A stretch of 64,000 bases of DNA from a virus (taxonomy: Duplodnaviria > Caudoviricetes), in IMG/VR virus record IMGVR_UViG_3300038673_000510, positions 52,959-116,958 of that record; one strand, 5' to 3'. The translations under genes and the position numbers were made by a program. A model generated the notes under the pieces. That model searched no databases, was not told the DNA's origin, and saw only the letters and a list, made by a program, of their open reading frames with translations. This document shows, piece after piece, positions 10,204-58,232 of this stretch. Every line of letters starts with the position of its first letter. Position 1 is the stretch's first letter.

Positions 10204-12327
10204 ATGGCAGATACATTAAACGGTAATGATTTTAGAGAATATCGAGACCTCTTTGGAAGTCCCATTCAACAGCAAGCAACCGCTTCAGATGGAACAAAAG
10301 CAGAAATAGATATTCTACTTAAAAAAATTGATCGTAAGTTAAAACGTTTTACACAATCTGATAGTGAACTTATTGGTCAACCAGATTATACAATAAGTCC
10401 AAGAGAACTAATTCCTATATCTATTTTTAATAATGATGATGATTTAAACGCATTAGGCGGTTCTTCGTCTAAAAAACTAATGAATGACCTGGCTAAAATA
10501 GAACAGGAAAAAGCATTCAGATTAACTCGTTATAAAAGACTTCATAAAACTATTGAATCACCTGAAGCAGAAGGTATTCTAATGGTTTATGCTGATGAAG
10601 CAACAACAGAAGATCAGCAAGGAAGTATAATTCATATTCTCCATCCAGATAAAACAATTAAAGAAACCATTGAAGATTTATTTAGACGTTGTGATCTTGA
10701 GGATCGTTGCTGGTCTATGGTTTATAATATGTGTGGTTTTGGAGATGAGTTCTATGATGTTATTCCAGCTTTGTCAGCTGATAGAATTGCAAAAATAGAA
10801 TGGATTCCAAGAGATCAAATTGAACGTGTCGAAATAAACAATATTCTTCAGGGCTTTAGAACTGTTGATAAAAATTTAGATAATCAAGAACAAAGCGCTC
10901 TTTATACTACTTATAAATATGTAAATACTGATCAAGACACAGAAGAAAATGATCCAGTTAAAAATGCTGAAGGATTAATACACCCATTTAGAATTTTACA
11001 TTTTAGAATACCATCCGATAAATATAAACCATATGGAAAGTCTGTTCTTGATAGCATTATATCTCCAGTAGAACAATTAAATCTTATGATAAAAGCTATG
11101 TTAATTGCTCGTGTAAGTAGAGCACCAGAACGTAGAATATTTCATATTGATGTTGGCAATTTACAAGGAGAACCTGCTATTAAGTATGCTTATGATGCGG
11201 TAAATTTTCTTAAAAAGAAAAAACAACTAAGCGCAGTTGGAAATAGCGGTGGAACTACGCCAGATATGGTTCGTGATAGTTTTGGGGCCACTGAAGATAT
11301 AGTAATTCCTAAGCGTGCAGGAACAGAGGGAAATTCAATTGATACACTTCCATCTGCAAACGGCTTAGATCAAATCGGTGACATTGAATTCTTAAATAAT
11401 AGAATTTTTCCATCAACAGGAGTACCAAGAGAATATCTTTATGATACACAATTTGCATTTGCAAATACCACTCTTAGTTCTAAATCTGTTATTTTCGCTA
11501 AACGTGTAAGACGTGTTCAGCGTTTCTTTTTAAGTCAACTATATAAGCTGGTTGCTATAGAATTAAAACTTCGTGGTTTTTCTAATGAACAAATAAACGA
11601 TGTTACTCTTATGATGAATAATCCATCTAATATTGATGATAAAGAAAAAAATGAAGTTGACACGGGAATGTGGTCACTTATTAGTACCATAAAAGGAAGC
11701 AACACTGATGGTATTTTTTATCCAGATTACTTAATTTATAAAAATTATATGAAAATGGATGATGAAGAAATTGTAGAACTTCTTAAACTTGCGCAATTAC
11801 AAGCCGCTGGAGAAAATATATTTAAGTTTCTTCCTGAAGAAGATAGACCCGAAAGTGCAAAAGATCTTGGTAATAATCCTGGAACTAATGTAAATATGGG
11901 AGGGCCAGGTGGTGGTGGTGGCGGCGGAATTCCTATGGGAGGAGGAGCGCCATTAGGCGGTACCGAAAATCCAGAAGGCGGAGAAGGAACCGAAGGCGGA
12001 GAAGGAGAATTACCACCAGAGGCTAAAGGTGCTCTTGGTGAGCCAGAAGAATCAGTTGTTGATGATATTAATCCATTAAAAAATCAAGATTTATTTCTTG
12101 AGGCAATTGAGAATAAAGTAAAACTAATTAAAAAATTTCAAGAAGAACAAGCAAAAATTTTTGAAGAAGTTCAAAAGACCAGTGAAGCTCATATGTATAA
12201 GAAAAAAAGAACTATTCTGCATAATATGAATCTTTCTTATCTTGAAGAAACTGGTGAGCTTGATGGAATTGAAAATATTTTGGCTGTTAAAAACGATGCT
12301 TTTTTAGAAAGTGAAGAAGAAAAATAA
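10204..12327 (+). CDS. gp20: Portal protein
   Basis: YADEATT, PYGKSVLD, LIARVSRAPERRIFHIDVGNL and IDTLP; Gly/Glu-rich C-terminal extension. Confidence 0.95.
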   Translation: MADTLNGNDFREYRDLFGSPIQQQATASDGTKAEIDILLKKIDRKLKRFTQSDSELIGQPDYTISPRELIPISIFNNDDDLNALGGSSSKKLMNDLAKIEQEKAFRLTRYKRLHKTIESPEAEGILMVYADEATTEDQQGSIIHILHPDKTIKETIEDLFRRCDLEDRCWSMVYNMCGFGDEFYDVIPALSADRIAKIEWIPRDQIERVEINNILQGFRTVDKNLDNQEQSALYTTYKYVNTDQDTEENDPVKNAEGLIHPFRILHFRIPSDKYKPYGKSVLDSIISPVEQLNLMIKAMLIARVSRAPERRIFHIDVGNLQGEPAIKYAYDAVNFLKKKKQLSAVGNSGGTTPDMVRDSFGATEDIVIPKRAGTEGNSIDTLPSANGLDQIGDIEFLNNRIFPSTGVPREYLYDTQFAFANTTLSSKSVIFAKRVRRVQRFFLSQLYKLVAIELKLRGFSNEQINDVTLMMNNPSNIDDKEKNEVDTGMWSLISTIKGSNTDGIFYPDYLIYKNYMKMDDEEIVELLKLAQLQAAGENIFKFLPEEDRPESAKDLGNNPGTNVNMGGPGGGGGGGIPMGGGAPLGGTENPEGGEGTEGGEGELPPEAKGALGEPEESVVDDINPLKNQDLFLEAIENKVKLIKKFQEEQAKIFEEVQKTSEAHMYKKKRTILHNMNLSYLEETGELDGIENILAVKNDAFLESEEEK

Positions 12328-14113: not shown

Positions 14114-14782
14114 ATGGAACAGTTTAAAACAATATATATATCAGAAGCTTTTGTACCTGACAAATTTGGGTTTACAGAAGAAATTATTGGAGAAGATGCT
14201 ACCGGTCCTATTAAAGCTCTTATTCTTGAGGGAGAATTCCAGCGTGCTGAAGCACCTAATCGAAATAAAAGAGTTTATTCTGAAAGTCTTCTTTCACGTG
14301 AAACAAACAAACTACAGCAGTTTATTAAAGAGAGAAATGGACTTTTAATGGGCATGGACCATCCACTTCCAGGTGATAATGAACAAGCTATGACGCTTAT
14401 TCAAAGAATGGGTATGTCTGAAAGTTGTGGATTATGTAAACATCTTGAAATGGCTAATAAAGTTGTTTATGGTAAAGCACAAATTCTTGAAGGCGACCAT
14501 GGTCATGGTGATAAACTTGCTGCTATGATAAGAGCAAAATTTAAGCCTGGAGTAAGTTCTCGCGGTATTGGTGGTAAAGCTTCATATCATACTTCTGAAG
14601 GATATGTGTATGTTCCTGAAGATTATAATATGATTACATATGACTTTGTATCTCAACCAAGTACATATAACGCTATTCTTTCACAAAGATTTAATGAAGA
14701 ACTTCAGTATTTTGAAAATTCTTTAAAACAATACACAAGAACTATGTGGTCTGTATTAACAGATATAAAAAGTAAATATTAA
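14114..14782 (+). CDS. gp21: Prohead core protease
   Basis: LEGEFQRAEAPNRNKRVY, GMDHP (catalytic His), GVSSRGIG (catalytic Ser), YDFVSQPSTYNA. Confidence 0.95.
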   Translation: MEQFKTIYISEAFVPDKFGFTEEIIGEDATGPIKALILEGEFQRAEAPNRNKRVYSESLLSRETNKLQQFIKERNGLLMGMDHPLPGDNEQAMTLIQRMGMSESCGLCKHLEMANKVVYGKAQILEGDHGHGDKLAAMIRAKFKPGVSSRGIGGKASYHTSEGYVYVPEDYNMITYDFVSQPSTYNAILSQRFNEELQYFENSLKQYTRTMWSVLTDIKSKY

Positions 14783-16210: not shown

Positions 16211-17791
16211 ATGTATTATAATGAAGCTTATGAATTAAGAAAACAAGAAGAAGATAAGCTCTTCAAAAAATGGGAAGAAGCTCTGAACATAGATGGTGGT
16301 GTAAGAGACGAACACATGGCTCGTACTACAGCTATATGTCTCGAAAACTATATGTCATATCTTCATGGAAACCCACATTTAGTGGCTGAAGATCAGATTC
16401 AGACAAACGCATTCACAGGAGTTAACCTTGCTCTATTAGGTCTTATTGCTCGTGTTATTCCTACTCTTGTTGGTGCTGAACTTGTAGGTATTCAAGCGCT
16501 TCCTACACCTAAGTCTCCTATCTTCACAATGAGATGGTATTACTCAAATAACAAAGGTCAGACACGTAAAGGTGATGAACTTTGGAAATCTCCTACAGAT
16601 TTCTCAAGATTCCCAGTAGGTCTTGATGCAAATTACTCTTCACAGATTATCGTTGAAGACGTTGCTACTGGTGCAGCAGAACACTTACTTGAATTTGGTA
16701 ACACTAATGATAACATTCGTGCGACTAAGCCTTTCATCTTTGCTGGTTCTATGTACATCACTGCTTTTAATGCAGAAACAAAAGATGTTGTTATCGAAGG
16801 TTATGTACCTGGTGCTTATATGACAGCTGGTACTTCAGTTGCTTTCTCAGTTGTTCGTGCAGTTGAAACTGGACATGACGCTCTTATTACAGGTCTTACA
16901 TTCGCAAACACAGGTGGCGTTCTTGGAATTACTGGAACACGTGCTGCTTCTGTAACTATTGGCGGTTCAACAGTTGCTCTTAACTGGCGCCTAAAATATG
17001 AATACAAAGGTGAAGCTGATCCTAACGCTCCTGAACTTAACTTTGAAATCACAGATGAAACTGTTGAAGTTATCAGACGTCAGTTAAGAGGAAAATATAC
17101 AATGGACGCAGCTTATGACCTACAGAAGTTACATGGTCTTAATGTTGATGCTGAGCTTACTAACATGATGAAAATCGAGTTACAAGCTGAGATCAACCGC
17201 GAAATTGTTGCTGACCTTCGTGCTATGGCTGCAATCGTTAAAACTCTTGACTTCAATACTGTTGGTGATGGTGCTACTGGTATAACAATCCGTGGAAACT
17301 ACGATGATGCTCACAAGATTCTTCTTGATAGTATCAACACAATGTCTGCTGAAGTATTCAACATTGGTCGTTTAGGAAAAGCTAACTTCGTACTTGGAAA
17401 TCCAACTACTCTTGCTTTCCTTGATCGTGTACCTGGATTCGTTGGTGCTGGTGTAAATTACAACGGTAAAGAACTTGGTTATGCTGGTTCACTTGGTGGA
17501 AAAATGAAATTCTACATCGATCCTAACTATCCTAAGAATGAACTTCTTATAGGTTACAAAGGACCAGGTGCTCTTGATACTGGATATATCCATGCTCCTT
17601 ATCTTCCTATCATTGCTACTCCTACGATGATTAACCAGGAAACTGGAGACCCATCGAAGATCTTCTACACAAGATATGGTAAAACATATAATATGTATGG
17701 ACCTACAGGACCAAGTAATAAAATTTTGATGGGGGAATATCAATATGCTCGTCTTATCCTCAAGAATTTCCCAACAAGTTTAACATTCTAA
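16211..17791 (+). CDS. gp23: Major capsid protein
   Basis: ELVGIQALPTPKSPIF, RQLRGKYTMDAAYDLQKLHGLNVDAEL...AEINREIV, GYIHAPYLP, TRYG. Confidence 0.97.
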   Translation: MYYNEAYELRKQEEDKLFKKWEEALNIDGGVRDEHMARTTAICLENYMSYLHGNPHLVAEDQIQTNAFTGVNLALLGLIARVIPTLVGAELVGIQALPTPKSPIFTMRWYYSNNKGQTRKGDELWKSPTDFSRFPVGLDANYSSQIIVEDVATGAAEHLLEFGNTNDNIRATKPFIFAGSMYITAFNAETKDVVIEGYVPGAYMTAGTSVAFSVVRAVETGHDALITGLTFANTGGVLGITGTRAASVTIGGSTVALNWRLKYEYKGEADPNAPELNFEITDETVEVIRRQLRGKYTMDAAYDLQKLHGLNVDAELTNMMKIELQAEINREIVADLRAMAAIVKTLDFNTVGDGATGITIRGNYDDAHKILLDSINTMSAEVFNIGRLGKANFVLGNPTTLAFLDRVPGFVGAGVNYNGKELGYAGSLGGKMKFYIDPNYPKNELLIGYKGPGALDTGYIHAPYLPIIATPTMINQETGDPSKIFYTRYGKTYNMYGPTGPSNKILMGEYQYARLILKNFPTSLTF

Positions 17792-17817
17792 TAGAAGCTT
17801 AAAATAGAAATAATAAG

Positions 17818-17850
17818 AAATGGAACCAATTTTTTGGTTCCATTTTTTTT
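17818..17850 (+). terminator. Rho-independent terminator after the capsid gene
   Basis: AAATGGAACCAA-loop-TTGGTTCCATTT followed by a T-run. Confidence 0.85.
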
Positions 17851-17885: not shown

Positions 17886-18497
17886 ATGGAATATATAGTA
17901 TATAAAATAACAAATAAAGTAAACAATAAAATTTATATAGGGCTTACAAATAATTTTCAAAAAAGAAAACAAGGACACCTAAGTGATTGTTTTAATGAAA
18001 AATCTAAACGATACAATCATTTAATATATAGAGCAATAAGAAAGTATGGATTAGAAAATTTTCAGTGGGATATATTAAAAACTTATCCAGATAGAAAATC
18101 TATGGAACTTGGAGAAAAGTATTATATAGCTTATTATGAAAGTAACAATAAAAATAATGGATATAACTGTACTATAGGTGGTGACGGTGGACCAATTCGA
18201 TTAGGTATGAAAACTTCCGAAGAAACTAAAAAGAAAATTAGTCTATCATGTAAAGGTAAAGTAATATCTGAAGAACAGAAGAAACAAATTTCTGAAACAT
18301 TAAAAGGTAGAAAGCCATCAAATAATACTATTATAGCAAATAGTAGACCTATTAAAAATATAGTTACTGGTGAAATGTTTATATCAGTAAAAGAAGCTTA
18401 TGAAAAAGACCAAGTTAGCAAAAGTACTATTTTTAGAATTTTAAATGGTAAACAAGATAAAGATTATAAGCACAATTATGTGTATCAATATATGTAG
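17886..18497 (+). CDS. Free-standing GIY-YIG homing endonuclease with NUMOD3-type repeats
   Basis: IVYKITNKVNNKIYIG...R...E...GYNCTIGGDG; SEETKKKIS repeats; C-terminal HTH. Confidence 0.9.
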   Translation: MEYIVYKITNKVNNKIYIGLTNNFQKRKQGHLSDCFNEKSKRYNHLIYRAIRKYGLENFQWDILKTYPDRKSMELGEKYYIAYYESNNKNNGYNCTIGGDGGPIRLGMKTSEETKKKISLSCKGKVISEEQKKQISETLKGRKPSNNTIIANSRPIKNIVTGEMFISVKEAYEKDQVSKSTIFRILNGKQDKDYKHNYVYQYM

Positions 18498-18523
18498 AAA
18501 TTAACGTAGAATAAAATAAAAAG

Positions 18524-18553
18524 AAAAGGACCTAAAAAATTAGGTCCTTTTTT
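18524..18553 (+). terminator. Rho-independent terminator
   Basis: AAAAGGACCTAA-loop-TTAGGTCCTTTT. Confidence 0.85.
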
Positions 18554-18572: not shown

Positions 18573-18606
18573 ATAGCATATATTATAGATGAGGATTTAT
18601 TTGATT

Positions 18607-19284
18607 ATGTTTAAAACTTACCTTGAATATTTGACACGTAAAGAAAGAAGTATTGCTGCTAATAATGGACAGACCAACCTTACTCAAATAAATAAAGTGA
18701 CCGCGAGAGAGGATGATAAGCTTCCAGAATGGTGGTATAGTAATTTTTATACTACTCCCGAACATGTGACAACTAAAAAAGAATATATAGATTATTATTC
18801 AGATAAAATTAGTGAGGTTACTCCCAATACTGATTATAAAAAAATAAGAAAGAGAGTAATAGTCGTTCCACAGGGTAAAGCTTATTGTGGGGATTCAAAT
18901 GAAGTAATACATAATCCTATAATTGGATATATGATGTGCCTTGGATTAATTCCTATGACTATTGATCTTTCAGATTATCAATGGACTTATGAGCCGGTTG
19001 AGGCTAAAAATCTTTTAGCACTTGAAATTGCAGCCTATGGGTCATATCAATCAGAAATATATTTTTCGGAAAGTTATAATCCTTATACTTTGAAAGATAT
19101 TAAAAAAATTATTAATCGACACTATAATGAAGTTTTAAAAAAATTATTTAATATCACTACAGATGATATTCAGTTTATGGATCACCATTTAGAAGAATTA
19201 GAAAATGATGATGAAGATGATCCAGCTTACGATGACGATGACGATGTTTTTGCTTATTATGATAATCCATTTGAAGAGAGTTAA
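18607..19284 (+). CDS. YLE-leader protein, GQTNL paralog family, copy 1
   Basis: MFKTYLEYLTRKERSIAANNGQTNL; shares LPxW, IH..I..YMMC.G and ESY with 23948 and 25038. Confidence 0.75.
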   Translation: MFKTYLEYLTRKERSIAANNGQTNLTQINKVTAREDDKLPEWWYSNFYTTPEHVTTKKEYIDYYSDKISEVTPNTDYKKIRKRVIVVPQGKAYCGDSNEVIHNPIIGYMMCLGLIPMTIDLSDYQWTYEPVEAKNLLALEIAAYGSYQSEIYFSESYNPYTLKDIKKIINRHYNEVLKKLFNITTDDIQFMDHHLEELENDDEDDPAYDDDDDVFAYYDNPFEES

Positions 19285-19683
19285 ATTATGAAAAAAACAT
19301 TAGATTTTTATTTAGAGATGATATTTCAAAAAGATAATAAAGATTTTACTAAAAATTTTAAGTATTCGGCAAAACTCGAGACAATAGAAAGACATTTATT
19401 TGGTGATTATCTTTATATATTGTCTGAAAAAGTTGAAAATAAAGTTCCATATAAATATAAATGGAAAAAAGCAAAATCAAGAAAAGATTCAGATAAATAT
19501 AATCAGTATAGAATCATAGTTGACTCAGCAACTGGCGAACCTGTTGTAAGATACGAATGGGCTACTTCAATCTTTGAATCTGATATTCCTAAAGAACAAT
19601 TTTTTAAAGAAATAAAAGATTTTGTACAAGAAGAAAAAATAAAATTAAAAAGGTTAATGGATACAATGTTTCCTAAATATTAA
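19021..19683 (+). repeat. Donor copy of the 663-bp duplicated segment
   Basis: 19309-19683 equals 21979-22353. 19021-19318 equals 22354-22652 apart from one substitution and one extra A. Confidence 0.95.
19288..19683 (+). CDS. YLE-leader hypothetical protein (original copy)
   Basis: MKKTLDFYLEMIF...; identical to 21961-22353 from YLE onward. Confidence 0.8.
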   Translation: MKKTLDFYLEMIFQKDNKDFTKNFKYSAKLETIERHLFGDYLYILSEKVENKVPYKYKWKKAKSRKDSDKYNQYRIIVDSATGEPVVRYEWATSIFESDIPKEQFFKEIKDFVQEEKIKLKRLMDTMFPKY

Positions 19684-19684
19684 T

Positions 19685-20056
19685 ATGTTAAAAATATATT
19701 TAGAAAATATATCACAAGAACGTTGGCAGGAATATATAGAAAGAATACCGATGCTTAAAGCTGGTGTTGAGGTACTTCATAAACTTGAAAAATTTGGTGA
19801 AGCATATATAGTTGGTGGCGCAGTTCGTGATATAGTTTCAGGTACTAAAGAGCCACATGATATAGATATAGCAACTAATGTGCCAATGGAAGTAATTGCT
19901 AAAATTTTTGGTAATGATAAAATCAATGATATAGGTGCCTCAAAAGATTTTGGAATAATTACTTTACAGTATAAAGGCTTTAATTATGAAATAGCTCAAT
20001 TTAGATCGGAATCTTATGTTGAACCAGATTATGTACAAAGAATAATAGAGGAATAA
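19685..20056 (+). CDS. cca: Split CCA-adding tRNA nucleotidyltransferase, N-terminal fragment
   Basis: Motif A AYIVGGAVRD...DIDIATN and YEIAQFRSESY, then 12 extra residues and a stop. Confidence 0.9.
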   Translation: MLKIYLENISQERWQEYIERIPMLKAGVEVLHKLEKFGEAYIVGGAVRDIVSGTKEPHDIDIATNVPMEVIAKIFGNDKINDIGASKDFGIITLQYKGFNYEIAQFRSESYVEPDYVQRIIEE

Positions 20057-20884
20057 AATGTACGGATATGTTTATAAAACAACGAACTTGATAAATAATA
20101 AAATTTATATAGGACAAAAGGTTTCTTCGAAATTTTTGTTATCATATTATGGTTCTGGTGTAATTTTGAAACGTGCACTTAAAAAATATGGAAAGGATAA
20201 TTTTTTAATTGAAATGCTATGTGAATGTGATTCTCAAAATGATTTAGATTCTAAGGAAATTTTATTTATTGATAAATATAAAAATGAACATAATGAACAA
20301 TGTTATAATATTGCCTCCGGTTCTAAATTTGGTGGTAATCAAATGAAATATGCTACTAACGAAAAAATTCAAGAAAAAAATCAAAAAATTAGTATTGCTA
20401 ATAAAGGAAAAAAAGCTTGGAATAGGGGTTTAACCATTAATGATCCAAGAGTTAAATTGTATGCCGATAAACATAAGGGTTTTACTTATTCAGAGGCATC
20501 TTTAGAAAAAATGTCTATAAGTGCAAAAATTAGAGCTAATAAACCAGAAAATGTTAATAGGATGAAAAATAATAATCCGGCGCAAAATCCTATTATTGCA
20601 GAAAAAATTAGTAAATCATTACAAGGTAAAATGGTATTAGATAAAAATCCTAACTGGAATACTTTAGATGAAAATAAAATTAAGGAAATGTATTTTGCTG
20701 GATATAAAATTAAAGATATAGCTAATTATTTTGAAGTTGGGACTCAATCGATTACCAGAAGAATAAAAAAATTAAAATTAGCAAAAAGATTAAGGAGTTC
20801 TTTAATATGAAATTAGGCCCTATAGAAAAATTTAATCCTAATAATCCAGAACATCTTGATCCCAAAAAATATAAAATAACTTAT
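20018..20884 (+). mobile_element. 867-bp endonuclease cassette interrupting cca
   Basis: CTTAT direct repeats at 20013-20017 and 20880-20884. In-frame removal restores FRSESYKSSGRKP. Confidence 0.6.
20058..20810 (+). CDS. GIY-YIG homing endonuclease (Seg-like) inside the split cca
   Basis: MYGYVYKTTNLINNKIYIGQ...YYGSG...E...YNI; KAWNRG, NNPA and NPNW modules; C-terminal HTH. Confidence 0.92.
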   Translation: MYGYVYKTTNLINNKIYIGQKVSSKFLLSYYGSGVILKRALKKYGKDNFLIEMLCECDSQNDLDSKEILFIDKYKNEHNEQCYNIASGSKFGGNQMKYATNEKIQEKNQKISIANKGKKAWNRGLTINDPRVKLYADKHKGFTYSEASLEKMSISAKIRANKPENVNRMKNNNPAQNPIIAEKISKSLQGKMVLDKNPNWNTLDENKIKEMYFAGYKIKDIANYFEVGTQSITRRIKKLKLAKRLRSSLI

Positions 20885-21964
20885 AAAAGTTCTGGTCGTA
20901 AACCAACAAGTGTTCAAATTGAAATGTCATTTAAAGAGGATGCTAAAAGAAGAGATTTCACTTTCAACGCTATGGCAATAGATAGTAAAGGAAATGTTAT
21001 AGATTATTTTGATGGACAACAAGCTATTCAGAGTAAAATTCTTAAAACCGTTGGTGATCCAGAACAAAGGTTTACTGAAGATTATTTAAGAATGATGCGA
21101 GCAATTAGATTTGCAAGTAGACTTGGATTTAATATTGATCCTCAAACTGGTGAGGCTATTAAAAAGCATGCCACTAAAATTTCAGGAATATCATCAGAAA
21201 GAATCTTAAAAGAACTATTAAGTATGGCAGAACAGTCTGGAAGTAAATTTGCTGATGCTATTATTGGGTTAAATGATTTTGGATTACTTCAACATATTCT
21301 GCCAGAGATAGTTTCCATGGATGAATATGAGCATGATGAAGAAACTCACCCCGAAGGAAATGTATATCAACACACGCTTGCTGCATTAAGAGCAAACGGA
21401 ATTGTTGATCCAATTATAAATCTTGCTATTTTATTACATGATATAGGGAAGACTACTACACGAACTTATAAAGATAATGGAAAGGTTCAATATCTTGGAC
21501 ATGCACAGGCGGGAATATCATTAATTGAAAAAATTGCAAATAGACTTAAGATGGACAATGATGCAAAAGACGCATTAATCTTTGCGGCCGAAAATCATAT
21601 GAAAATGCACAATTTACTTAATATGAGCAATGCAAAGATATACGCTTTAATTAAAAATAAGAATTGGAACGTATTGTATAATGTTGCTCTTGCGGACCAA
21701 AAAGCGCGGGGAAATCTCTTCCAAAAGGCCGATTGGGACAAGACTGTAGAGCGAATTGAAGATGTAACAAATAAGTATGCTAATCAAGATTTTCAAAAAG
21801 CTATTAAGAAAGTTCTTAATGGTGAAATGGTTATGCAGTTAAAGGGATTAAAACCAGGTCCAGAAGTCGGTAAAATTATTAATCAAACTATGGATTGGAT
21901 TTTAAATAAAAATATTGATATCAATGATATCGAAAAAATTAAGAGGTATATAATAAGCATATGA
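20807..21964 (+). CDS. cca: Split CCA-adding enzyme, C-terminal fragment with HD domain
   Basis: SGRKP...EDAKRRDFTFNAMA (motif B), DYFDG (C), FTEDYLRMMRAIRF (D), SSERILKEL (E), HPEGNVYQHT and LLHDIGK (HD). It has its own AAGGAG RBS at 20792. Confidence 0.92.
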   Translation: MKLGPIEKFNPNNPEHLDPKKYKITYKSSGRKPTSVQIEMSFKEDAKRRDFTFNAMAIDSKGNVIDYFDGQQAIQSKILKTVGDPEQRFTEDYLRMMRAIRFASRLGFNIDPQTGEAIKKHATKISGISSERILKELLSMAEQSGSKFADAIIGLNDFGLLQHILPEIVSMDEYEHDEETHPEGNVYQHTLAALRANGIVDPIINLAILLHDIGKTTTRTYKDNGKVQYLGHAQAGISLIEKIANRLKMDNDAKDALIFAAENHMKMHNLLNMSNAKIYALIKNKNWNVLYNVALADQKARGNLFQKADWDKTVERIEDVTNKYANQDFQKAIKKVLNGEMVMQLKGLKPGPEVGKIINQTMDWILNKNIDINDIEKIKRYIISI

Positions 21965-22353
21965 CAACTTTAGAAATGTATTTAGAGATGATATTTCAAA
22001 AAGATAATAAAGATTTTACTAAAAATTTTAAGTATTCGGCAAAACTCGAGACAATAGAAAGACATTTATTTGGTGATTATCTTTATATATTGTCTGAAAA
22101 AGTTGAAAATAAAGTTCCATATAAATATAAATGGAAAAAAGCAAAATCAAGAAAAGATTCAGATAAATATAATCAGTATAGAATCATAGTTGACTCAGCA
22201 ACTGGCGAACCTGTTGTAAGATACGAATGGGCTACTTCAATCTTTGAATCTGATATTCCTAAAGAACAATTTTTTAAAGAAATAAAAGATTTTGTACAAG
22301 AAGAAAAAATAAAATTAAAAAGGTTAATGGATACAATGTTTCCTAAATATTAA
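21961..22353 (+). CDS. Chimeric duplicate of 19288-19683 carrying the leader of the disrupted target gene
   Basis: MTTLEM leader, then identical to the 19288 gene from YLE to the stop. Confidence 0.8.
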   Translation: MTTLEMYLEMIFQKDNKDFTKNFKYSAKLETIERHLFGDYLYILSEKVENKVPYKYKWKKAKSRKDSDKYNQYRIIVDSATGEPVVRYEWATSIFESDIPKEQFFKEIKDFVQEEKIKLKRLMDTMFPKY

Positions 22354-22652
22354 CTTGAAATTGCAGCCTATGGGTCATATCAATCAGAAATATATTTTTC
22401 GGAAAGTTATAATCCTTATACTTTGAAAGATATTAAAAAAATTATTAATCGACACTATAATGAAGTTTTAAAAAAATTATTTAATATCACTACAGATGAT
22501 ATTCAGTTTATGGATCACCATTTAGAAGAATTAGAAAATGATGATGAAGATGATCCAGCTTACGATGACGATGACGATGTTTTTGCTTATTATGATAATC
22601 CATTTGAAGAGAATTAAATTATGAAAAAAAACATTAGATTTTTATTTAGAGA
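21979..22652 (+). repeat. Circularly permuted copy of 19021-19683 between TATTTAGAGA direct repeats
   Basis: The order is B-A here and A-B in the donor. Novel joint ...aaatattaa|cttgaaattgc at 22353/22354; direct repeats at 21979-21988 and 22643-22652. Confidence 0.92.
22354..22617 (+). pseudogene. Duplicated 3' fragment of gene 18607-19284
   Basis: Identical to the last 88 codons of that gene except one base; no proper start. Confidence 0.85.
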
Positions 22653-22669
22653 GAGTACAAGATCAACAG

Positions 22670-23149
22670 ATGATAAATGAAGGTTTTGTTGATAGATTAG
22701 GTGCTGGTGTTTTGACAGCATTAATCACACTTGGTAGTGTTGGTATTGGTGGCGGATTAGTTGTTGGTTTTAGTGCGTCACAAAAGAACGCTTTGTTAAA
22801 TGGTGAGACAATAAATTTTGAACTTGACAAATCAACCTCACATCTTGATTATACAAAAACAATGGCAAGACAGATGGCTTATCCAAATGGACACCCAATG
22901 AAAACTTTACCAATGAATCCAGCAACAGATTCTTCTCCGGATGAAGTAATGTTTAAAATGAAAATTGATGATAATAAAGCGAATAGTGATTTTGCTTCAA
23001 ATGGAGTTTATGTTGATATAAAGAATAAAATTATTTATGTTAGTAGAGATAGAGTAGAAAAACGTAGTCCATTTAAATTACATGGCGATGAAAAAGAAGC
23101 TAAACGATCAATTGAAAAACAACGTGGCAATATTGATAGTATGAAGTAA
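22670..23149 (+). CDS. Hypothetical protein with a hydrophobic segment; body of the gene whose original start was at 21961
   Basis: Joining 21961-21988 to 22653 gives in-frame MTTLEMYLERVQDQQMINEGFVDRL, followed by a TM-like LGAGVLTALITLGSVGIGGGLVVGF. Confidence 0.7.
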   Translation: MINEGFVDRLGAGVLTALITLGSVGIGGGLVVGFSASQKNALLNGETINFELDKSTSHLDYTKTMARQMAYPNGHPMKTLPMNPATDSSPDEVMFKMKIDDNKANSDFASNGVYVDIKNKIIYVSRDRVEKRSPFKLHGDEKEAKRSIEKQRGNIDSMK

Positions 23150-23151
23150 TT

Positions 23152-23439
23152 ATGAAAAAAAGTTTACATGATTATATTGAAACACTTGATTCTCTTGAGA
23201 ATGATGTTATTAGTATCAATTTATTTGATGATAAAATTATTCAAGCATTAAAAGATGCCAGAGATGGTGATATAATTTTTATGCCGGAATCTGATTATGG
23301 TTTTGGAGAAATATATAAAATTCACAATTGGTTAATTGTGTTTTTAATTCCTAATTTTGGCGGAATTCCAGAATTTCATAATGCCTATCGTTTATCTGAT
23401 GTTGAAGATATGATTCAAGAATTAAGAAGTTTAACATAA
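23152..23439 (+). CDS. hypothetical protein with a YIE leader
   Basis: MKKSLHDYIETLD. Confidence 0.7.
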   Translation: MKKSLHDYIETLDSLENDVISINLFDDKIIQALKDARDGDIIFMPESDYGFGEIYKIHNWLIVFLIPNFGGIPEFHNAYRLSDVEDMIQELRSLT

Positions 23440-23448
23440 TGGTATAAT

Positions 23449-23943
23449 ATGAGTTTAGCATTATATTTAGAAATTACTAACAATCATGATTTTGATCGCA
23501 ATGCTTATTTGAAATGGAAAAGAAAAAATGTAACTTACCGTGGAATAAAATCTTTTGGTAAAGATAATGAAGTGTATGGTTCTTTTGGAAGAGGACTATA
23601 CACTGTTCCATTATCAAATAAGTCTATGGCAAAACAATATGGAAAACTTTATTTCGTAGTTGGAGCTATACCAAAAAATCCCAAAATTGTACAGTCTATA
23701 AATGATGCTGAAATACTTTTACAAAAATTAATTATAGATTATTGTAAAGGACAAAATCATACAAAGGATTATGATCCTTCTTTTTTTGAAAATCATACAT
23801 CTATGGATAAAGAGCTTGTTAAACAAGGATATGATGGTTTTATAATTAAAGGCAGAGAAATTGTTAATTATAAACCCAATAATATTCTTTACTTTCCAAC
23901 GGAAGAAGAAGTAATACATCACTGGAAAAATATTGCGGAGTAA
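23449..23943 (+). CDS. Putative ADP-ribosyltransferase-fold protein with YLE leader
   Basis: VTYRG...FGRGLYT...AKQYG...GYDGFIIKGREIVNYKPNNI resembles ART-fold phage domains. Confidence 0.55.
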   Translation: MSLALYLEITNNHDFDRNAYLKWKRKNVTYRGIKSFGKDNEVYGSFGRGLYTVPLSNKSMAKQYGKLYFVVGAIPKNPKIVQSINDAEILLQKLIIDYCKGQNHTKDYDPSFFENHTSMDKELVKQGYDGFIIKGREIVNYKPNNILYFPTEEEVIHHWKNIAE

Positions 23944-23947
23944 TAAA

Positions 23948-24532
23948 ATGATATTTAGAGATTATCTTGAAATAATGACACGTCAAGAAATGCGACGTGC
24001 CGCTAACGCTGGTCAAACAAATCTTGAAAAAGTTGGTGAAGTATTGTCACGTAGCGATAGTGGATTATTGCCAAGATGGTTTCTAATATTGTTAGAAGAA
24101 CAACTCAATATGGAAAACATAAGATATAAATCAGATTTTATTGAAGTAATGAATGAAACAATATTTGATAATAAGATTAAACCATACCCACAAAACGCAC
24201 CAGAAAGTATTAGATTTATAATAACAAAAAATGGAGAATGCTTCTGGTGTGTTGCTGATGATGCTATTCATGGATCCATTCTTGCTTATATGATGTGCAA
24301 AGGTAAACTTCAAATGTTTGAAGAATTATTAGATTATGGATCTTGGTCTGAAACAATTGCATCTACTGATTATTTTATAGCTTTTATATGGGATGCTGAT
24401 GATAGTGAAACAAAATTAGCTGAAAGTTATGCTTATGAACTTGAAGAAATGGTTATGAGAAAATTATTTGTGCCACCATATAAAGATTATTTATTAAATA
24501 TAACAGGGTCATTAGAAATAAGTCCAAGTTAA
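23948..24532 (+). CDS. YLE-leader protein, GQTNL paralog family, copy 2
   Basis: MIFRDYLEIMTRQEMRRAANAGQTNL...IITKNGECFWC...IHGSILAYMMCKG. Confidence 0.8.
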   Translation: MIFRDYLEIMTRQEMRRAANAGQTNLEKVGEVLSRSDSGLLPRWFLILLEEQLNMENIRYKSDFIEVMNETIFDNKIKPYPQNAPESIRFIITKNGECFWCVADDAIHGSILAYMMCKGKLQMFEELLDYGSWSETIASTDYFIAFIWDADDSETKLAESYAYELEEMVMRKLFVPPYKDYLLNITGSLEISPS

Positions 24533-24543
24533 GAGAGAATACA

Positions 24544-25041
24544 ATGAGAAATAATTTAGCGCTTTATTTAGAATACTTACAATACCCAGAACCAGTTGAA
24601 TTAACTGATTTATATAATGAAGAAGATATTGTAAAGGGAAAAACCAATAATGGAAAGGGATGGTTTTACGCTGGCAATGATGAACATAAAAGTGAATTCT
24701 TTATGCTTAAACCTGGAGAAAACCATTGGGATCCATCTGTAGCAAAAAAGATGCAAAGTGTTGGATGGATTGATAAACCTGATTCCAATACTATGGAAAA
24801 AATATTTGCTGAAAATAAAATTATAAGATTTATTATAAATACTAATAATGAAAATGAACCAGTTACGGTTGAATCTGGTGGACAACTTGATAATTCAATT
24901 TATATTGGTATTATGAAATTAATGAAAAATAAAGTTGCTGGTCCTTTACAAAAAACAGCCAAAATAATTTGGGAATATGGAAAATCTGTTGGGCAAGCAA
25001 TTAAAAAATCATTTTCTGCGCAGGAGTGGCAATTAGCATGA
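24544..25041 (+). CDS. YLE-leader hypothetical protein
   Basis: MRNNLALYLEYLQ. Confidence 0.7.
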   Translation: MRNNLALYLEYLQYPEPVELTDLYNEEDIVKGKTNNGKGWFYAGNDEHKSEFFMLKPGENHWDPSVAKKMQSVGWIDKPDSNTMEKIFAENKIIRFIINTNNENEPVTVESGGQLDNSIYIGIMKLMKNKVAGPLQKTAKIIWEYGKSVGQAIKKSFSAQEWQLA

Positions 25042-25667
25042 TATTTAAAGATTATTTAGAAATGATGACAAGAAGCGAAATGAGACAAGCTGCTCAAAAT
25101 GGTCAAACAAATTTATTGCCTGGTCTTTCATCATTGAATAAAAAAGAAGTATTACTTCCCGAGTGGATGACAGATATGTTTGAAAATTGGGGAGCGGGAA
25201 ATGTACATGGGATGAGGTATAAATCTGATGTAATTGATAGATTTCAAAATGATGTTTTTAATGCCAAATTAAAACCTGTTCCATTTGATGTGCCAGAAAG
25301 TCTTACTAAAAGAATAAGAATTATTATTACTAAAAATGGCGAATGTTTTTGGTGTCGAGGATATAATGGAATTCATGGAAGTATTCTTGTGTATATGATG
25401 TGTATCGGTAAACTCCCGATGAAGAAAAGTTTTATTGATTATGATTATAAAGATGGATGGTGTTGGAATAATAATATAACTAAAACTTTTATAGCATTAG
25501 AAATGTTTTATGACCATAATAGAATAATTGTAAGAATGGCAGAAAGTTATCAAGAATTTTATGGAGCGCAGTTAAAACAATTATATCAAGATAAAACTTA
25601 TGAAGCTTTAGTAATGAAGTTTCTTAATTATCCTATACAAGATATAAAACTTAAATATCAATATTAA
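25038..25667 (+). CDS. YLE-leader protein, GQTNL paralog family, copy 3
   Basis: MIFKDYLEMMTRSEMRQAAQNGQTNL...IITKNGECFWC...IHGSILVYMMCIG. Confidence 0.8.
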   Translation: MIFKDYLEMMTRSEMRQAAQNGQTNLLPGLSSLNKKEVLLPEWMTDMFENWGAGNVHGMRYKSDVIDRFQNDVFNAKLKPVPFDVPESLTKRIRIIITKNGECFWCRGYNGIHGSILVYMMCIGKLPMKKSFIDYDYKDGWCWNNNITKTFIALEMFYDHNRIIVRMAESYQEFYGAQLKQLYQDKTYEALVMKFLNYPIQDIKLKYQY

Positions 25668-26149
25668 ATATGTTTGACTTGTTTTTCAATTTGTTCTTTT
25701 ACTAAATCAATATTATTTTTTATATCCTTTTCTTTAAATCTCAGAAGTGGTATTCCCAGTTCTTTTAACATATTGTTTTTGAATTTATCATTTCTGAGAT
25801 TTTTACGTTGTATTTTAGTTAAATCAGAATATTTTTGATCGCCCTCTTGATATGCCGACGCATGATAGTAATCTCCATCGCATTCAATACAAAATGTATA
25901 ATTAATCCCATCTGTAACATAAAAATCAAACTTCTTTGCTCTTCCTTTATATATAAAAATTTTTTCTTGAATATAATAGAGTCCCATAGAATCTAATAAC
26001 ACTCTTACGCGTCTTTCAATACTATTTTCTTTTTGTGTACCATCAGCATTTTTATATTGTTGCAGATTTTTAATTGCCTTAGCTTTTGCTTTTTTATATC
26101 TGTCTTTATTTTGTTTTCGTATCTTCTTTGCTGTTAATCGGTCTACCAT
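25664..26149 (-). CDS. DUF559/Vsr-like endonuclease
   Basis: NSIERRV...FDFYV...IECDGDYYH...NDKFKN...GIPLLRFKEKDI. Confidence 0.8.
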   Translation of the reverse strand: MVDRLTAKKIRKQNKDRYKKAKAKAIKNLQQYKNADGTQKENSIERRVRVLLDSMGLYYIQEKIFIYKGRAKKFDFYVTDGINYTFCIECDGDYYHASAYQEGDQKYSDLTKIQRKNLRNDKFKNNMLKELGIPLLRFKEKDIKNNIDLVKEQIEKQVKHI

Positions 26150-35600: not shown

Positions 35601-38546
35601 ATGGCTGAATCCTTAACAGGAATGATAGGTAAATCATTTGAATATGAAGAAAGAGCCAAAGTAAAAACTGTTCAAGATACTATTACTGGAACAATTGGTG
35701 CTTTTATTGGATGCGCAACTTGGGGTCCAATAAATGTTCCCACTCAAGTAACAGATTTTGAAAGCACATTTGGTACACCTCTTGTAAAGGCCGACGGAGT
35801 AGATTATTCTGGACAAGCAGCAGTACACACTCTTAGATATACACCGTTTTGTTGGTTCACTCGTGTGACTAACGGTCTTGAAAACAAAGCGCAATACAAT
35901 ATTATAAAAGCTGCAGTGCCAGCACAAATTGAAGGAACTAAAGATCTTCAAGACGTAAGTTATGTAGTATATGAAGCTGATACTAAAATATATGCAACTG
36001 ATTATAATAAAAATAATTCGCTAAAATTTAACGTAATTACTCCAGCGGGAAGTTCACCTAAGGATGTTGTTCTGGATGGTACTGCTGGTTGTACATCAAT
36101 TGTAAGTGAAGTAACACTTCCAACAGATCAAGATTATGTTAGTGGAAAATGTGGTAGTTCTACTGTTCGTGGAACATGGAATTATGCAATAGGTGATTCA
36201 CTTACTTTTGTAATTGATGGTATCACTTATAAATATGTAGTAAAACAGGAACTCGCAGATGGTTCTATGGACCCAGATAAACCTGATTTTACAAATCTTT
36301 TAGTACCTGCTACTGGAGATTATGGATCAAAATATATTGGTTCTGTAGCTATAGCAGCTTCTTTCAATGGAACATTTTCTCTTCCTGATACGCCTGCAAT
36401 TCCTGCTGCGTTTTCTGGAACGTTCCTTGTAGGTGGAGTTGCTGGTACATCTGTTGAAATTGAAGCTGATGTTGCTGGTGTTGCTGGAAATAAAACAGTA
36501 ACCGGTAACGGCACTGACACTCTTACTGTTCTTGTTGGAGCTGGTTATACTATAGTTGGTGATGGTACTCAAATACCAGATAATGGAGTTCAAATCGCAA
36601 TTGTTGGTGGTGCCGATATAGTTACAAATACATCAACATCTGTTTCGATTCTTGCTAACACAGCTGGTCTTGCTGGAAATAAAGTTGTAACAGGTAATGG
36701 TACCGATACTCTTGCTACTCTTGTTGGAGCTGGTTATACAATTACTGGTGATGGCACTCAGATTGTAAAAAGTGGTTCTACGGTAAATATTGCTGGTGGA
36801 GCAGACGCTGCTTCTTTAACTTGGGATGCTTATGTAGCTGCAACTGCAGTAAACACTTATAAGAAAAGATTTATATATGCAGTAAAAAATCATATTATAA
36901 TTCCTAAACTTGTTTCTTATTTTGGAAGCAATTTAACAACTCAAGAAAGATCCGATATTGCAGATGATCTTATTACGATTGTTGGAAATAATATTTCTTT
37001 AAATAGTATCAAAAAAGGACTTAATTCTGAAATTAAAATTTTCAGTATTCCTAAAATATATACAGCTACAAGTTCTAATCCATTAACAAGTATTGGTGCT
37101 AATACAGAATTTGCTGCTATTCAGACAGCTATTAATACTTATCTTGGTGCCGATGCTTCTGTTTCACTTGATGAAAGCACATACTTCTTTAATTTCTTAA
37201 GCGCTAAAGCTGGTGATACTTATGGAATTGAAATTGTGGAATCAGATGATGGTGTTGATAGTCTTTATGCATCACTTGGAATTAGTGCTTCTGGTATAGT
37301 ATATGGAACTGATGCTGTTGCCGACGCAGGAACATTTATTGCAAAATATACTGGTTCAGAGGGTAACACAATTACGCTTACAAAAACAAAAGAAAGCGAT
37401 GGATATTCACTCGCAATTTATTTCCAAGGATATTTAGTATCTTCTTTTTATAACTATAGTTATAATGTTGCTGATGCAAATTTCTTAGGCAAACTGATTG
37501 CTTCTGATAGTTCTGCAAGTAAAGTAATTTCTCTTGAAGTTCCTGCTGGCGTTACAAGTATTCCTTCTCTTGCTTATGGAAGTTTTGTTCTTGGTGGCGG
37601 TACCGATGGTATTTCTCCAATGCCAGGTGAAACAAAATACAATGGCGCAATTGAAGAATATAAAAACGTTGACCTTTATGTAATAGATATGATTGTTGTT
37701 AGTGGACATACTTCTCAGTCTGTTCAATCTAAATTACAAGAAATATGTGAATATAGAAAAGACTGTTTTACTGTTGTTGATGCGCCTGAGACTGTTGGTG
37801 GTCCTCAGAGCGTTGGTGGTAGTGTTGCAGCAATGATTCAGTGGCATAATGGAACTGGTGGTTATGGAAGAACAAAAGCTCTTGATAGTAAATTTGTTTC
37901 TACATACTTCCCATGGATTTCAATTCCTGATGGAACTACTGATGCGGATAGTACATGGTATGCACCTTCTGTTCGTGTTGTTGGAACAATTGCAGCTTGT
38001 GATAAATCAAAAGGACATAGATTTGCAGCTCCAGCTGGAAACGTAAATGCTCCTATTTCTTCTATCAATCATCTTGCACATTATTTAAGAGAAGATGATA
38101 AAAAAAGATTATATGCAGATGAGCTTGACAATAATATAAATCCACTTGTTTATACTACGACTCGCGGATTCTTTATTGATGGTCAGAAAAACTGTTTAAA
38201 AGGTGGAGGAGCATCAAGTCGTCTTAATGTTCTTAGAACAAGCCTTTATATTAAGAAAAGAATTTATGAACTTACTCCTAACTTCTTCTGGAAACCTTTA
38301 ACAAAAGGAACTATGGATGATTTAGCGTTTGTACTTAGAACAATAGGAACTTACCTATCTTCTAATGAAGTTCAAGCTATTAAACCTGACTTTACAGTTA
38401 CTGTTGACCAATCAGTAAATACAGATACTACTGAAGCTCAAAGAGGTCTTATTGGAGTTTTTGAATGGACACCAGTAAGAAGCATTGAAAAGATTAAGGT
38501 TATCTCAATCATCAATGACCTTAAAGTTACAGTAACATACGCTTAA
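35601..38546 (+). CDS. gp18: Tail sheath protein with large inserted domains
   Basis: GAFIGCATWGPINVP, AKYTGSEGNTI, RKDCFTVVDAP, YFPWI, APS, NINPL, SRLNVLR. Confidence 0.95.
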   Translation: MAESLTGMIGKSFEYEERAKVKTVQDTITGTIGAFIGCATWGPINVPTQVTDFESTFGTPLVKADGVDYSGQAAVHTLRYTPFCWFTRVTNGLENKAQYNIIKAAVPAQIEGTKDLQDVSYVVYEADTKIYATDYNKNNSLKFNVITPAGSSPKDVVLDGTAGCTSIVSEVTLPTDQDYVSGKCGSSTVRGTWNYAIGDSLTFVIDGITYKYVVKQELADGSMDPDKPDFTNLLVPATGDYGSKYIGSVAIAASFNGTFSLPDTPAIPAAFSGTFLVGGVAGTSVEIEADVAGVAGNKTVTGNGTDTLTVLVGAGYTIVGDGTQIPDNGVQIAIVGGADIVTNTSTSVSILANTAGLAGNKVVTGNGTDTLATLVGAGYTITGDGTQIVKSGSTVNIAGGADAASLTWDAYVAATAVNTYKKRFIYAVKNHIIIPKLVSYFGSNLTTQERSDIADDLITIVGNNISLNSIKKGLNSEIKIFSIPKIYTATSSNPLTSIGANTEFAAIQTAINTYLGADASVSLDESTYFFNFLSAKAGDTYGIEIVESDDGVDSLYASLGISASGIVYGTDAVADAGTFIAKYTGSEGNTITLTKTKESDGYSLAIYFQGYLVSSFYNYSYNVADANFLGKLIASDSSASKVISLEVPAGVTSIPSLAYGSFVLGGGTDGISPMPGETKYNGAIEEYKNVDLYVIDMIVVSGHTSQSVQSKLQEICEYRKDCFTVVDAPETVGGPQSVGGSVAAMIQWHNGTGGYGRTKALDSKFVSTYFPWISIPDGTTDADSTWYAPSVRVVGTIAACDKSKGHRFAAPAGNVNAPISSINHLAHYLREDDKKRLYADELDNNINPLVYTTTRGFFIDGQKNCLKGGGASSRLNVLRTSLYIKKRIYELTPNFFWKPLTKGTMDDLAFVLRTIGTYLSSNEVQAIKPDFTVTVDQSVNTDTTEAQRGLIGVFEWTPVRSIEKIKVISIINDLKVTVTYA
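36355..36806 (+). repeat. Internal duplicated domain in the sheath gene
   Basis: About 57-aa repeat offset by 189 bp (TSV.I.A..AG.AGNK.VTGNGTDTL..LVGAGYTI.GDGTQI...GGAD), preceded by twin AASFNGTF/PAAFSGTF strands. Confidence 0.85.
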
Positions 38547-43294: not shown

Positions 43295-43639
43295 ATGGAT
43301 GTGATTACACGTTATTACACAAAACGTATAAAAAATTTTAATATGACAATAAATACATTTTGTAAAGAAAAAGGAATCCCAAGCAGTTTGAATAATGCGC
43401 TTACATATAAAGCTAATATGGGGATAGGATGTTTTTGGAAAAATTTATATGTGGCTCCAAAGATTTATCTTGCTAACAGTAAATCTTTTTTAGCATACAG
43501 AGAATCATTAGATATTGATTTTCAAAACGATATTATAACTAATGACGAAATTTTTGCATTACAACAAGAAACTATTAAAAATAAACATATAAAAGAACAA
43601 TTAAAAAAAGTTATGAAGTATGACTTTATAGAGGAATAA
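43295..43639 (+). CDS. hypothetical protein
   Basis: 114-aa ORF after an AT-rich divergent intergenic region. Confidence 0.6.
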   Translation: MDVITRYYTKRIKNFNMTINTFCKEKGIPSSLNNALTYKANMGIGCFWKNLYVAPKIYLANSKSFLAYRESLDIDFQNDIITNDEIFALQQETIKNKHIKEQLKKVMKYDFIEE

Positions 43640-43640
43640 A

Positions 43641-44171
43641 ATGGTACAGATAAGAATAAAAGAAAAAGATAGAATACAATATAAAGATAAACAAAGTGAA
43701 TTTTCAAAACAAAACAGACATGGATCATTAGTAAAATCTTTTATTTTACGTAATGGTCAGTTGGAATTTTTTGACGCAGAACTTGAAACAAAAATGATAC
43801 CAAAAAAATTTAGTGAAGATATTAATAATATTCCACTAAAACAAATTATAACTGATAATTGTTCTCTTATGTTTCAAGACCCACAGAACGCATTAAGATT
43901 TTTAGTATATAATAATGGTTGGATAGAATCTGTATCTTTTGATGATCTTACAGAAGATGACGATATTCTTATCTTTGATGAAAACGAGCACGAATGGGCG
44001 CTTGCCAATATATTAGAATTAAAACGTTTTAGTACATATGTTGAAGACGAAGATCTTGAAAGAGAAGAAGCAATAACTCAAATGTTTCATGATAGTATGG
44101 CAAAAACATTTTCTCCATATATCATTAGACATTCTAAGGGAATGATAATAAATAATATATTGGTAATTTAA
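43641..44171 (+). CDS. Stand-alone degenerate Hint (intein-fold) protein
   Basis: GSLVKSF..NGQLEF, LKQIITDN, RFLVYNNGW..V..DDL...DDILI and PYII...GMIINNILVI follow Hint block order. There is no Cys1, TxxH or terminal HN. Confidence 0.5.
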   Translation: MVQIRIKEKDRIQYKDKQSEFSKQNRHGSLVKSFILRNGQLEFFDAELETKMIPKKFSEDINNIPLKQIITDNCSLMFQDPQNALRFLVYNNGWIESVSFDDLTEDDDILIFDENEHEWALANILELKRFSTYVEDEDLEREEAITQMFHDSMAKTFSPYIIRHSKGMIINNILVI

Positions 44172-53372: not shown

Positions 53373-53737
53373 ATTTAAGCGAATATTTAAAAAAATACAA
53401 CGAGGAAAACGCAATAGTTGACCTTAAGCCAGATCAGCTTAATAATGCTGGTGGACTTATATTAAGAATAAAAATTGGTAATGCTATGGAATCAGTAGCA
53501 ATTCCAAAAGGTGAATTTGTACCACTCGACCAAAACGGAGAAACATATAATATTCTTTTAAATGATTCTGTTATATCGCGTATTCAAAGTGCCATATTAA
53601 AAGCTAAAGGAAATAATTCGCAATATACTTCTTTTGCTGAAGCTATTAGTTCATTTAAAGGACAAAAGATTAAGGTCTATTTAAACAAAGCAGAGATATA
53701 TTATAATACAGATACTGGAGCATTAAACTTCCGATGA
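53369..53737 (+). CDS. hypothetical protein with a YL leader
   Basis: MNLSEYLKKYNEE. Confidence 0.65.
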   Translation: MNLSEYLKKYNEENAIVDLKPDQLNNAGGLILRIKIGNAMESVAIPKGEFVPLDQNGETYNILLNDSVISRIQSAILKAKGNNSQYTSFAEAISSFKGQKIKVYLNKAEIYYNTDTGALNFR

Positions 53738-58231: not shown

Positions 58232-58232
58232 A

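Follow-up and report, generated by a model that had tools for sequence, protein, structure and literature searches.

How can a phage genome come to hold the same short segment twice, with its two parts in opposite order? We ask this of a 64,000-nucleotide stretch (the window, in which positions are counted below unless another contig or locus is named) that covers bases 52959–116958 of IMGVR_UViG_3300038673_000510, a 116,958-bp IMG/VR virus contig from an uncultured phage recovered by metagenomics. The segment is a 663-bp donor unit at 19021–19683, in the order A then B, and its second copy lies 2.3 kb downstream in the order B then A (Table 1). Segment A is mostly the end of one gene (gene A) and segment B is the body of the next (gene B); the second copy sits within a third gene (gene X), which has an N-terminal leader with the residues Tyr-Leu-Glu (YLE) in common with gene B. 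We consider it reasonably probable that this arrangement stems from a recent rearrangement within the genome, through a head-to-tail intermediate and short-homology recombination over 10 bp, with no need for a dedicated recombinase.

The permuted copy and its junctions

The duplication is far beyond chance. A self-BLAST of the whole contig returns no other repeat above 89% identity, and we therefore regard the duplication as one young event and not as a pattern. The initial annotation had described the two copies and their opposite orders, a new joint with minimal homology at the stop codon of gene B, flanking 10-mers that are also present in the donor, 2 differences between the copies, and a single in-frame gene once the insert is deleted. 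Its coordinates are correct to the base, and alignment, flank extension, and removal of the insert reproduce the rest.

Specifically, the copies are separated by 2,295 bp, and the insert measures 664 bp today. Alignment of A with A' reveals only 2 differences, i.e. a G>A change (19280 vs 22613) and an A7 run that has become A8 (19291–19297 vs 22624–22631). The insert is bracketed by TATTTAGAGA, which we find at 21979 and 22643 and, in the donor, at 19309. This 10-mer occurs 4 times in the window vs 0.52 expected, and its fourth copy (23952) stands in a different reading frame. At the joint between B' and A', the sequence ...AATATTAA runs directly into CTTGAAATT, with a microhomology of 1 nt (A); flank extension gives 1 nt on one side and 0 on the other. 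Donor segment A starts at a codon boundary of gene A (codon 145), and A' stands in frame behind the TAA of B', again beginning on a codon boundary. When 21961–21988 is joined to 22653–23149 (i.e. with 21989–22652 deleted), an open frame of 174 codons starting MTTLEMYLERVQDQQMINEG is obtained.

The downstream copy is the derived one, as had been assumed, because A', a 3' fragment of a 225-aa gene, sets in mid-gene and lacks both a start codon and a ribosome-binding site; within it, gene calls yield only a 64-aa open reading frame (ORF) with a TTG start. The reverse polarity, with the downstream copy ancestral, is rejected for the same reason.

The initial annotation also held that a cargo gene was duplicated and that leaders were exchanged between 2 genes. 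Gene B is indeed duplicated intact, and B', which starts on an ATG overlapping the stop of the cca C-half, has the X leader, but the leader given to X in return is frameshifted by the extra A. With the A7 run of the donor, the transferred leader would read MKKTLDFYLERVQ... in frame with X. As it stands, the transferred ATG (22621) heads a 19-codon ORF ending in TGA and is out of the X frame, so that X starts only at the ATG at 22670. The G>A change is located 8 nt upstream of the transferred start, in the purine-rich stretch that serves as the ribosome-binding site of B, and neither difference between the copies is more than 19 bases away from that start. The present state is thus two intact B genes (one with the X leader), a dead start-less fragment of gene A, and a leaderless X.

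Gene A encodes 225 aa from MFKTYLE and has no Pfam or PHROG match. It belongs to a family of 3 paralogues in the array, the others starting at 23948 and 25038, with the common motif MIF(R/K)DYLE...AA(N/Q)(A/N)GQTNL; a homologue with 28% identity and the leader MDMKRYLE is found in a relative (locus L004). Gene B (131 aa) is an ORFan: a word-indexed search of 5.8 billion proteins reveals no homologue besides its own two copies, and the Atlas returns nothing usable. Within gene B, positions 19397–19422 (encoding HLFGDYLYIL) match 23952–23977, the leader MIFRDYLEIM of an A-family paralogue, at 21 of 26 nt, and this internal leader-like stretch may be the decayed leader of an older fusion or a product of chance. 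X could be assigned to no family. It carries a hydrophobic helix close to its N-terminus, and its only close match in word-indexed and exhaustive HMMER searches is itself. The central part of X has weak matches (22–28% identity; E-values of 1e-10 to 4e-6) to a domain of giant proteins, where it is present in up to 13 repeats within 1,383–3,231 aa (P0024–P0027).

Routes to a rotated copy

The B-A order, at near-100% identity to the A-B donor, means that the unit must have been joined end to start either before it was copied or in the course of copying. Judging from the geometry, the 663-bp unit would first have gained a non-homologous head-to-tail joint with 1 nt of microhomology, either as an end-joined free circle or as a tandem duplication that was looped out, in an arbitrary permutation, by ordinary homologous recombination. 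One unit would then have entered gene X, 2.3 kb downstream, at the only other in-frame TATTTAGAGA, where the 10-bp identity would have allowed it to integrate or to be copied in through repair synthesis and annealing. The junctions themselves show this second step, TATTTAGAGA encoding the Tyr-Leu-Glu of the short N-terminal leader common to B and X. Because both crossovers lie in the same codon phase, the product is in frame on both sides, i.e. X-leader::B and B-leader::X. The third step, displayed by the present sequence, is the later gain of an extra A in the A7 run, which frameshifts B-leader::X.

The B and X leaders are identical at 16 of 19 bases around the 10-mer. Most of the other YLE leaders carry TATTTAGAA, which makes the X leader the nearest perfect in-frame match for the insert. 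Circle and tandem routes take 2 or 3 events, whereas tandem duplications followed by deletions at YLE sites only would take about 4, and we reject that route. Nearby homing endonucleases could have been the source of the initiating break, the 663-bp unit itself carrying none. By analogy, the event may be likened to the short-homology recombination documented in T4, with a conserved coding leader as the portable homology.

Several points weigh against this reconstruction. A free circle, a looped-out tandem duplication, and repair synthesis on either leave the same 3 junctions, so that a free circle is plausible as the intermediate and no further. As such, the initial proposal that the segment circularized and was integrated by a crossover at the YLE codons stands for the head-to-tail joint and for the crossovers within the 10-bp codons, but its circle is inseparable from a tandem duplication or repair synthesis. 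The reconstruction is based on assembled contigs, and the 2 public contigs that contain the arrangement, which differ in length, may not be independent assemblies. Full-length gene A is labelled present in Logan, and an assembly at k=31 should not yield intact A if the A segment is found in 2 contexts at equal coverage; this label hints at population heterogeneity, with the A segment not duplicated, or at a loose source label. X is recorded only as the 159-aa form, with no 174-aa empty-site form among 5.8 billion clusters. Among relatives found with the capsid protein (L004–L017), none carries B, cca, or X. Lastly, UvsX/RecA, topoisomerase II, and endonuclease VII are not found in this 63%-complete fragment.

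Copy-choice would be a different origin, in which a replicating or repairing 3' end jumps 3 times without any head-to-tail DNA intermediate, i.e. from the X leader to the B leader (10 bp), from the end of B to mid-A (1 nt), and from the B leader to X (10 bp). Such jumps give the same 3 junctions. T4-type replication is recombination-dependent and prone to template switching, and 3 nuclease genes within 6 kb (17886–18497, 20058–20810, and, on the minus strand, 25664–26149) could start break repair. However, copy-choice needs 3 switches in one tract, one of them backwards at 1 nt of homology, where the circle or tandem route gets by with a single illegitimate joint followed by a reciprocal or annealing step. 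The sequence offers nothing in favor of copy-choice, and we consider it unlikely.

Slightly less likely again is an artifact of assembly or population, with real junction reads from different molecules threaded into one contig path that would exist in no individual genome. Such reads could derive from variant strains, from mini-circles (free or amplified), or from library chimeras, in a contig that is metagenomic and about 63% complete. There are near-identical strains in other samples, the 2 differences between the copies could be strain alleles, and the labelling of intact gene A in Logan does not fit easily with a duplication at equal coverage. Against this, a graph assembler could not have invented the junctions, because the shared 10, 1, and 10 nt are shorter than the usual k-mer and because the copies differ at 2 sites; chimeras of a k-mer graph would need longer homologies, and the 3 junctions make one coherent in-frame insertion. 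Exact-sequence look-ups (NCBI, JGI/IMG) find both forms of B and the insert-specific 64-aa A' ORF on 2 public contigs of different length, and the longest public contig with the exact B' protein is 194,212 bp. In a k=31 model of the genome, the repeated blocks touch only A, B, B', and the A' ORF; the Logan assemblies lack precisely 3 of these 4 and contain every flanking gene. No record shows X in a different form, and, even if the contig path were an artifact, the B-A joint would still be a real head-to-tail molecule.

We give little weight to a by-product of homing, in which sloppy repair of a GIY-YIG break near cca would have duplicated an upstream neighbor downstream. The donor ends 1 nt before the start of cca, the beginning of the insert falls in the gene overlapping the stop of cca, and the copies bracket a gene carrying a homing endonuclease. 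This bracketing, however, is also explained by the X leader being the nearest perfect 10-mer. The 663-bp unit has no endonuclease gene, a break alone makes no B-A joint, and such a break could be the trigger of the head-to-tail rearrangement that we favor rather than an alternative to it.

It is very unlikely that the locus reflects an integron-type cassette system, with YLE-leader DNA as the recognition site of a site-specific recombinase or nuclease that moves cargo genes. The insertion is precisely at a YLE site and in frame, and about 17 genes of the contig, together with genes in L004, L005, and L006, start M-x(2-7)-YLE. However, the unit is not bounded by 2 YLE sites: with 1 nt of homology, its own joint links the B stop to the interior of gene A. 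The nucleotide conservation of the leader is as predicted from its amino acids and AT-rich codon use, which suffice to explain it, and the contig has no second event. Profile searches for tyrosine and serine recombinases (integrase PF00589, resolvase PF00239) and for rve (DDE) find no match in the 116,958-bp record (~63% complete), in agreement with the early statement that no integrase or transposase is visible; controls for the recombinase searches were detected. Revival of this disfavored idea would take, e.g. a protein that cuts or binds TATTTAGA. Judging from these genes and junctions, a dedicated mobile system of any kind appears unlikely. A transposon or insertion sequence is rejected, with no rve (DDE) domain and no inverted repeats at the insert ends; the flanking 10-bp repeat is homology and not a target-site duplication, because it is already present inside the donor at the permutation point.

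Leader family, relatives, and known systems

About 17 otherwise unrelated ORFs in 117 kb begin M-x(2-7)-Y-L-E, usually with a hydrophobic residue 3 positions before the Tyr. These genes are located at 18607–25667 and 53734–60870 of the window, and also at G000:C1:5947, 22823, and 23336. The second cluster includes a tandem pair of paralogues (235 aa and 232 aa; 56813–58231) with 75–80% DNA identity in blocks, which points to an older tandem duplication in such arrays. Among relatives, leader genes are found at L004:9910, L005:15626–17653, and L006:11961–14237, and both L005 and L006 have runs of small genes starting M-x-YLE. The leader is present on small genes even in relatives at 58% capsid identity, which makes it clade-wide. 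It also heads enzymes, e.g. the CCA-adding enzyme. Given the gp21-type protease gene of this phage, the leader would be compatible with a role in capsid targeting or cleavage.

Scans of IMG/VR with X, B, and the cca C-half retrieve no relatives, and a 28-mer of the X leader is absent from a scan of the metagenome collection. Scans with the capsid protein reveal relatives at 50–90% identity (L004–L017). The content of these loci, without B, cca, or X, leaves no empty-site comparison, and the empty allele that the initial annotation suggested looking for in related genomes is not found among them. The region downstream of the capsid gene is variable among relatives. L005 and L006 are 99.7% identical and differ only by the copy number of a tandem repeat within a gene, not by a leader-bounded cassette. 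Specifically, L006 (13764–14149) has 2 extra copies of a 120–129-bp in-frame repeat compared with L005 (17429–17565), inside a 200-aa protein starting MKFGKYLK.

Another gene of the array (164 aa; 23449–23943) has a 94%-identical homologue in other samples (proteins P0015 and P0016). This homologue has an unrelated 30-residue in-frame N-terminal extension, with no counterpart in the phage genome studied here, and the similarity starts exactly at the Met of MSLALYLE. It is a weak hint that neighbors may change at leaders.

The locus resembles the shuffling of promoter-stem-loop (PeSL) cassettes, which combine an early sigma-70 promoter with a terminator stem-loop, but is not a member of that class. 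Mini-circles of 400–1,400 bp were found in RB49 and phi1 by inverse polymerase chain reaction (PCR); they form between PeSL cassettes, and their excision was proposed to be reversible (Arbiol et al. 2010; PMC2839356). A term search of that paper turns up no reference to reintegration. Integration of mini-circles was later invoked to account for what distinguishes pairs of phages, and was tied to the T-even internal-protein locus, from presence/absence between phages only (Comeau et al. 2014; PMC4122927). As with PeSL mini-circles, the phage is of the T4 type, the piece is an accessory one of a few hundred bp (663 bp falls in the 400–1,400-bp range), and a circular intermediate is proposed, as is reintegration via a short shared sequence. 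Unlike PeSL mini-circles, the locus has no promoter-stem-loop cassettes and all its breakpoints are in ORFs; the circle joint has 1 nt of microhomology rather than an exchange between 2 homologous flanking elements; the shared sequence is 10 bp of leader codons; and the integrated permuted copy is visible.

The T-even internal-protein (IP) genes encode unrelated injected proteins that have only an N-terminal capsid-targeting leader in common (PMC3012670; PMC12373910). Their shuffling between relatives was noted 30 years ago (Repoila et al. 1994, as cited in PMC3012670 and PMC4122927). Here too, unrelated small genes form arrays with a common ~10-residue N-terminal leader ending in Glu, and a prohead protease gene is present. 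In contrast to the IP leader, the YLE leader is also found on enzymes, and packaging or cleavage of its proteins would hold by analogy; and no mechanism is detailed for the IP locus, whereas the crossover here is mapped to leader codons.

Tandem amplifications in T4 take place at 6–10-bp microhomologies (Srikant, Guegler, and Laub 2022; PMC9391042, and older T4 work cited there). In both cases, a small accessory gene is duplicated at short homologies without a dedicated recombinase and with head-to-tail joints. However, those copies lie in tandem and in register, while the present one is 2.3 kb away and permuted; its head-to-tail joint shares 1 nt, compared with 6–10 nt, and its insertion junctions lie in a 10-bp identity. 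Integron cassettes are circular, as the present unit may have been, insert at a short conserved site, and have their cargo expressed from resident signals. The present locus, by contrast, has its crossover within coding DNA and lacks an integrase, and its unit does not carry an attC-like site at each end. Full-text literature searches reveal no earlier description of such a permuted and integrated copy.

The arrays of small accessory genes in T4-type phages change fast and include many counter-defense genes, and the routes by which they gain and rearrange genes are only partly understood. A rotated integrated copy is the scar expected from the reintegration of a mini-circle, and the locus would offer a clean natural scar of a process that has so far been inferred mainly from PCR products and presence/absence comparisons. 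If reads confirm the arrangement, 10 bases of a conserved coding leader suffice for in-frame capture; one cargo gene was duplicated and leaders were swapped, and the by-products (i.e. the dead fragment and the frameshifted leader) are already decaying.

It is doubtful, at present, that YLE-leader DNA is a recurrent and selected plug-in point in this phage clade and that arrays grow and reshuffle by a general route of which the locus would be the first captured instance. If so, any circularized leader-bearing piece could insert in frame behind a resident leader and start, the crossover being inside the leader codons at a fixed phase, and each insertion could instantly create a new leader-tagged, possibly virion-packaged, protein. 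The suggestion in the initial annotation that the event may show how the array is shuffled and expanded relies on a single event, as there is no other young or permuted repeat in the contig. One event in one uncultured phage is a lead for searches and not a general mechanism.

Genome and local gene order

The contig has 30% G+C and an estimated completeness of 63%. Its major capsid protein has 27% identity to T4-type gp23 over 96% of its length, a Peptidase_S77 (gp21-type prohead protease) gene is present at 14210–14680 (profile score of 61 bits), and the contig encodes an ATP-dependent DNA ligase. By its genes, the genome is that of a distant T4-like phage. GenBank phages include no close relative in an INPHARED DNA search (near and distant modes) or in a protein search with gene A, the DNA search yielding weak matches to the GIY-YIG gene alone.

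Table 1. Features of the duplicated locus and neighboring genes (window positions).
Feature	Position	Strand	Description
Major capsid protein	16211–17791	+	gp23-like
GIY-YIG homing endonuclease	17886–18497	+	Between two terminator hairpins
Gene A	18607–19284	+	From ORF list
Donor segment A	19021–19308	+	288 bp; last 88 codons of gene A, stop, 3-nt spacer, first 7 codons of gene B up to the YLE codons
Gene B	19288–19683	+	From ORF list
Permutation point of unit	19309–19318	+	TATTTAGAGA in gene B leader (Tyr-Leu-Glu plus 1 nt); A/B boundary of donor
Donor segment B	19309–19683	+	375 bp; gene B body, from YLE codons to final base of TAA stop
cca N-half	19685–20056	+	Pfam PolyA_pol head
Second GIY-YIG endonuclease	20058–20810	+	Free-standing; PHROG homing endonuclease, 8e-30
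cca C-half	20807–21964	+	Pfam PolyA_pol head, RNA-binding, and HD domains
Chimeric gene B'	21961–22353	+	130 aa; X leader MTTLEMYLE fused in frame to B body
Left crossover zone	21979–21988	+	TATTTAGAGA
B'	21979–22353	+	100% identical to donor B
Head-to-tail joint TAA/CTT	22351–22356	+	Final base of B stop joined to gene A codon 145
A'	22354–22642	+	289 bp, 99.3% identical to donor A; start-less 3' gene A fragment plus transferred leader of B
Transferred leader	22621–22680	+	ATG and A8 run encode MKKNIRFLFRESTRSTDDK-stop, in a frame other than that of X
Right crossover zone	22643–22652	+	TATTTAGAGA
Gene X today	22670–23149	+	159 aa from internal ATG, without leader
Five further small genes	After X (end 23149) up to 25667	+	
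DUF2726/DUF559-like nuclease gene	25664–26149	-	161 aa; restriction-endonuclease fold

Genes abut or overlap throughout 18589–25667. Coding-strand terminator-like hairpins are found only at 17815–17848 and 18522–18553, on either side of the first endonuclease gene; 18589–25667 has none, and one minus-strand consensus match is located at 24001–23977. Promoter-like matches in the array show no excess over shuffled sequence, and Rfam has no match inside it. The minus-strand DUF2726/DUF559-like gene marks the end of the leader-gene array and may be a third selfish nuclease in 8 kb.

The cca gene, which encodes a CCA-adding tRNA nucleotidyltransferase, is split by the second GIY-YIG gene inside its PolyA_pol head, with profile positions 1–74 in the N-half and 69–125 in the C-half, and the stop and start codons of the 2 halves and of the GIY-YIG gene between them tightly abut. 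A group I intron in cca as a mobile vehicle is rejected, as neither Rfam nor intron models give a match.

Related GIY-YIG genes (41–46% identity) are found directly downstream of the major capsid gene here (17886–18497) and in 4 relatives, i.e. L004:8401–9039 (-), L008:3480–4103 (-), L009:1700–2326 (+), and L007:11672–12034 (-). Three of these relatives (L004, L007, and L008) have the gene on the strand opposite to the capsid gene; in L009, as in the present phage, both genes share a strand.

Upstream of the window, a family of ~70-nt repeats with 80–89% identity is scattered in the early region (G000:C1:7081–7367, 10562–10642, 18995–19071, 36073–36152, 36346–36431, and 43601–43689). These repeats could be regulatory cassettes or small RNA genes.

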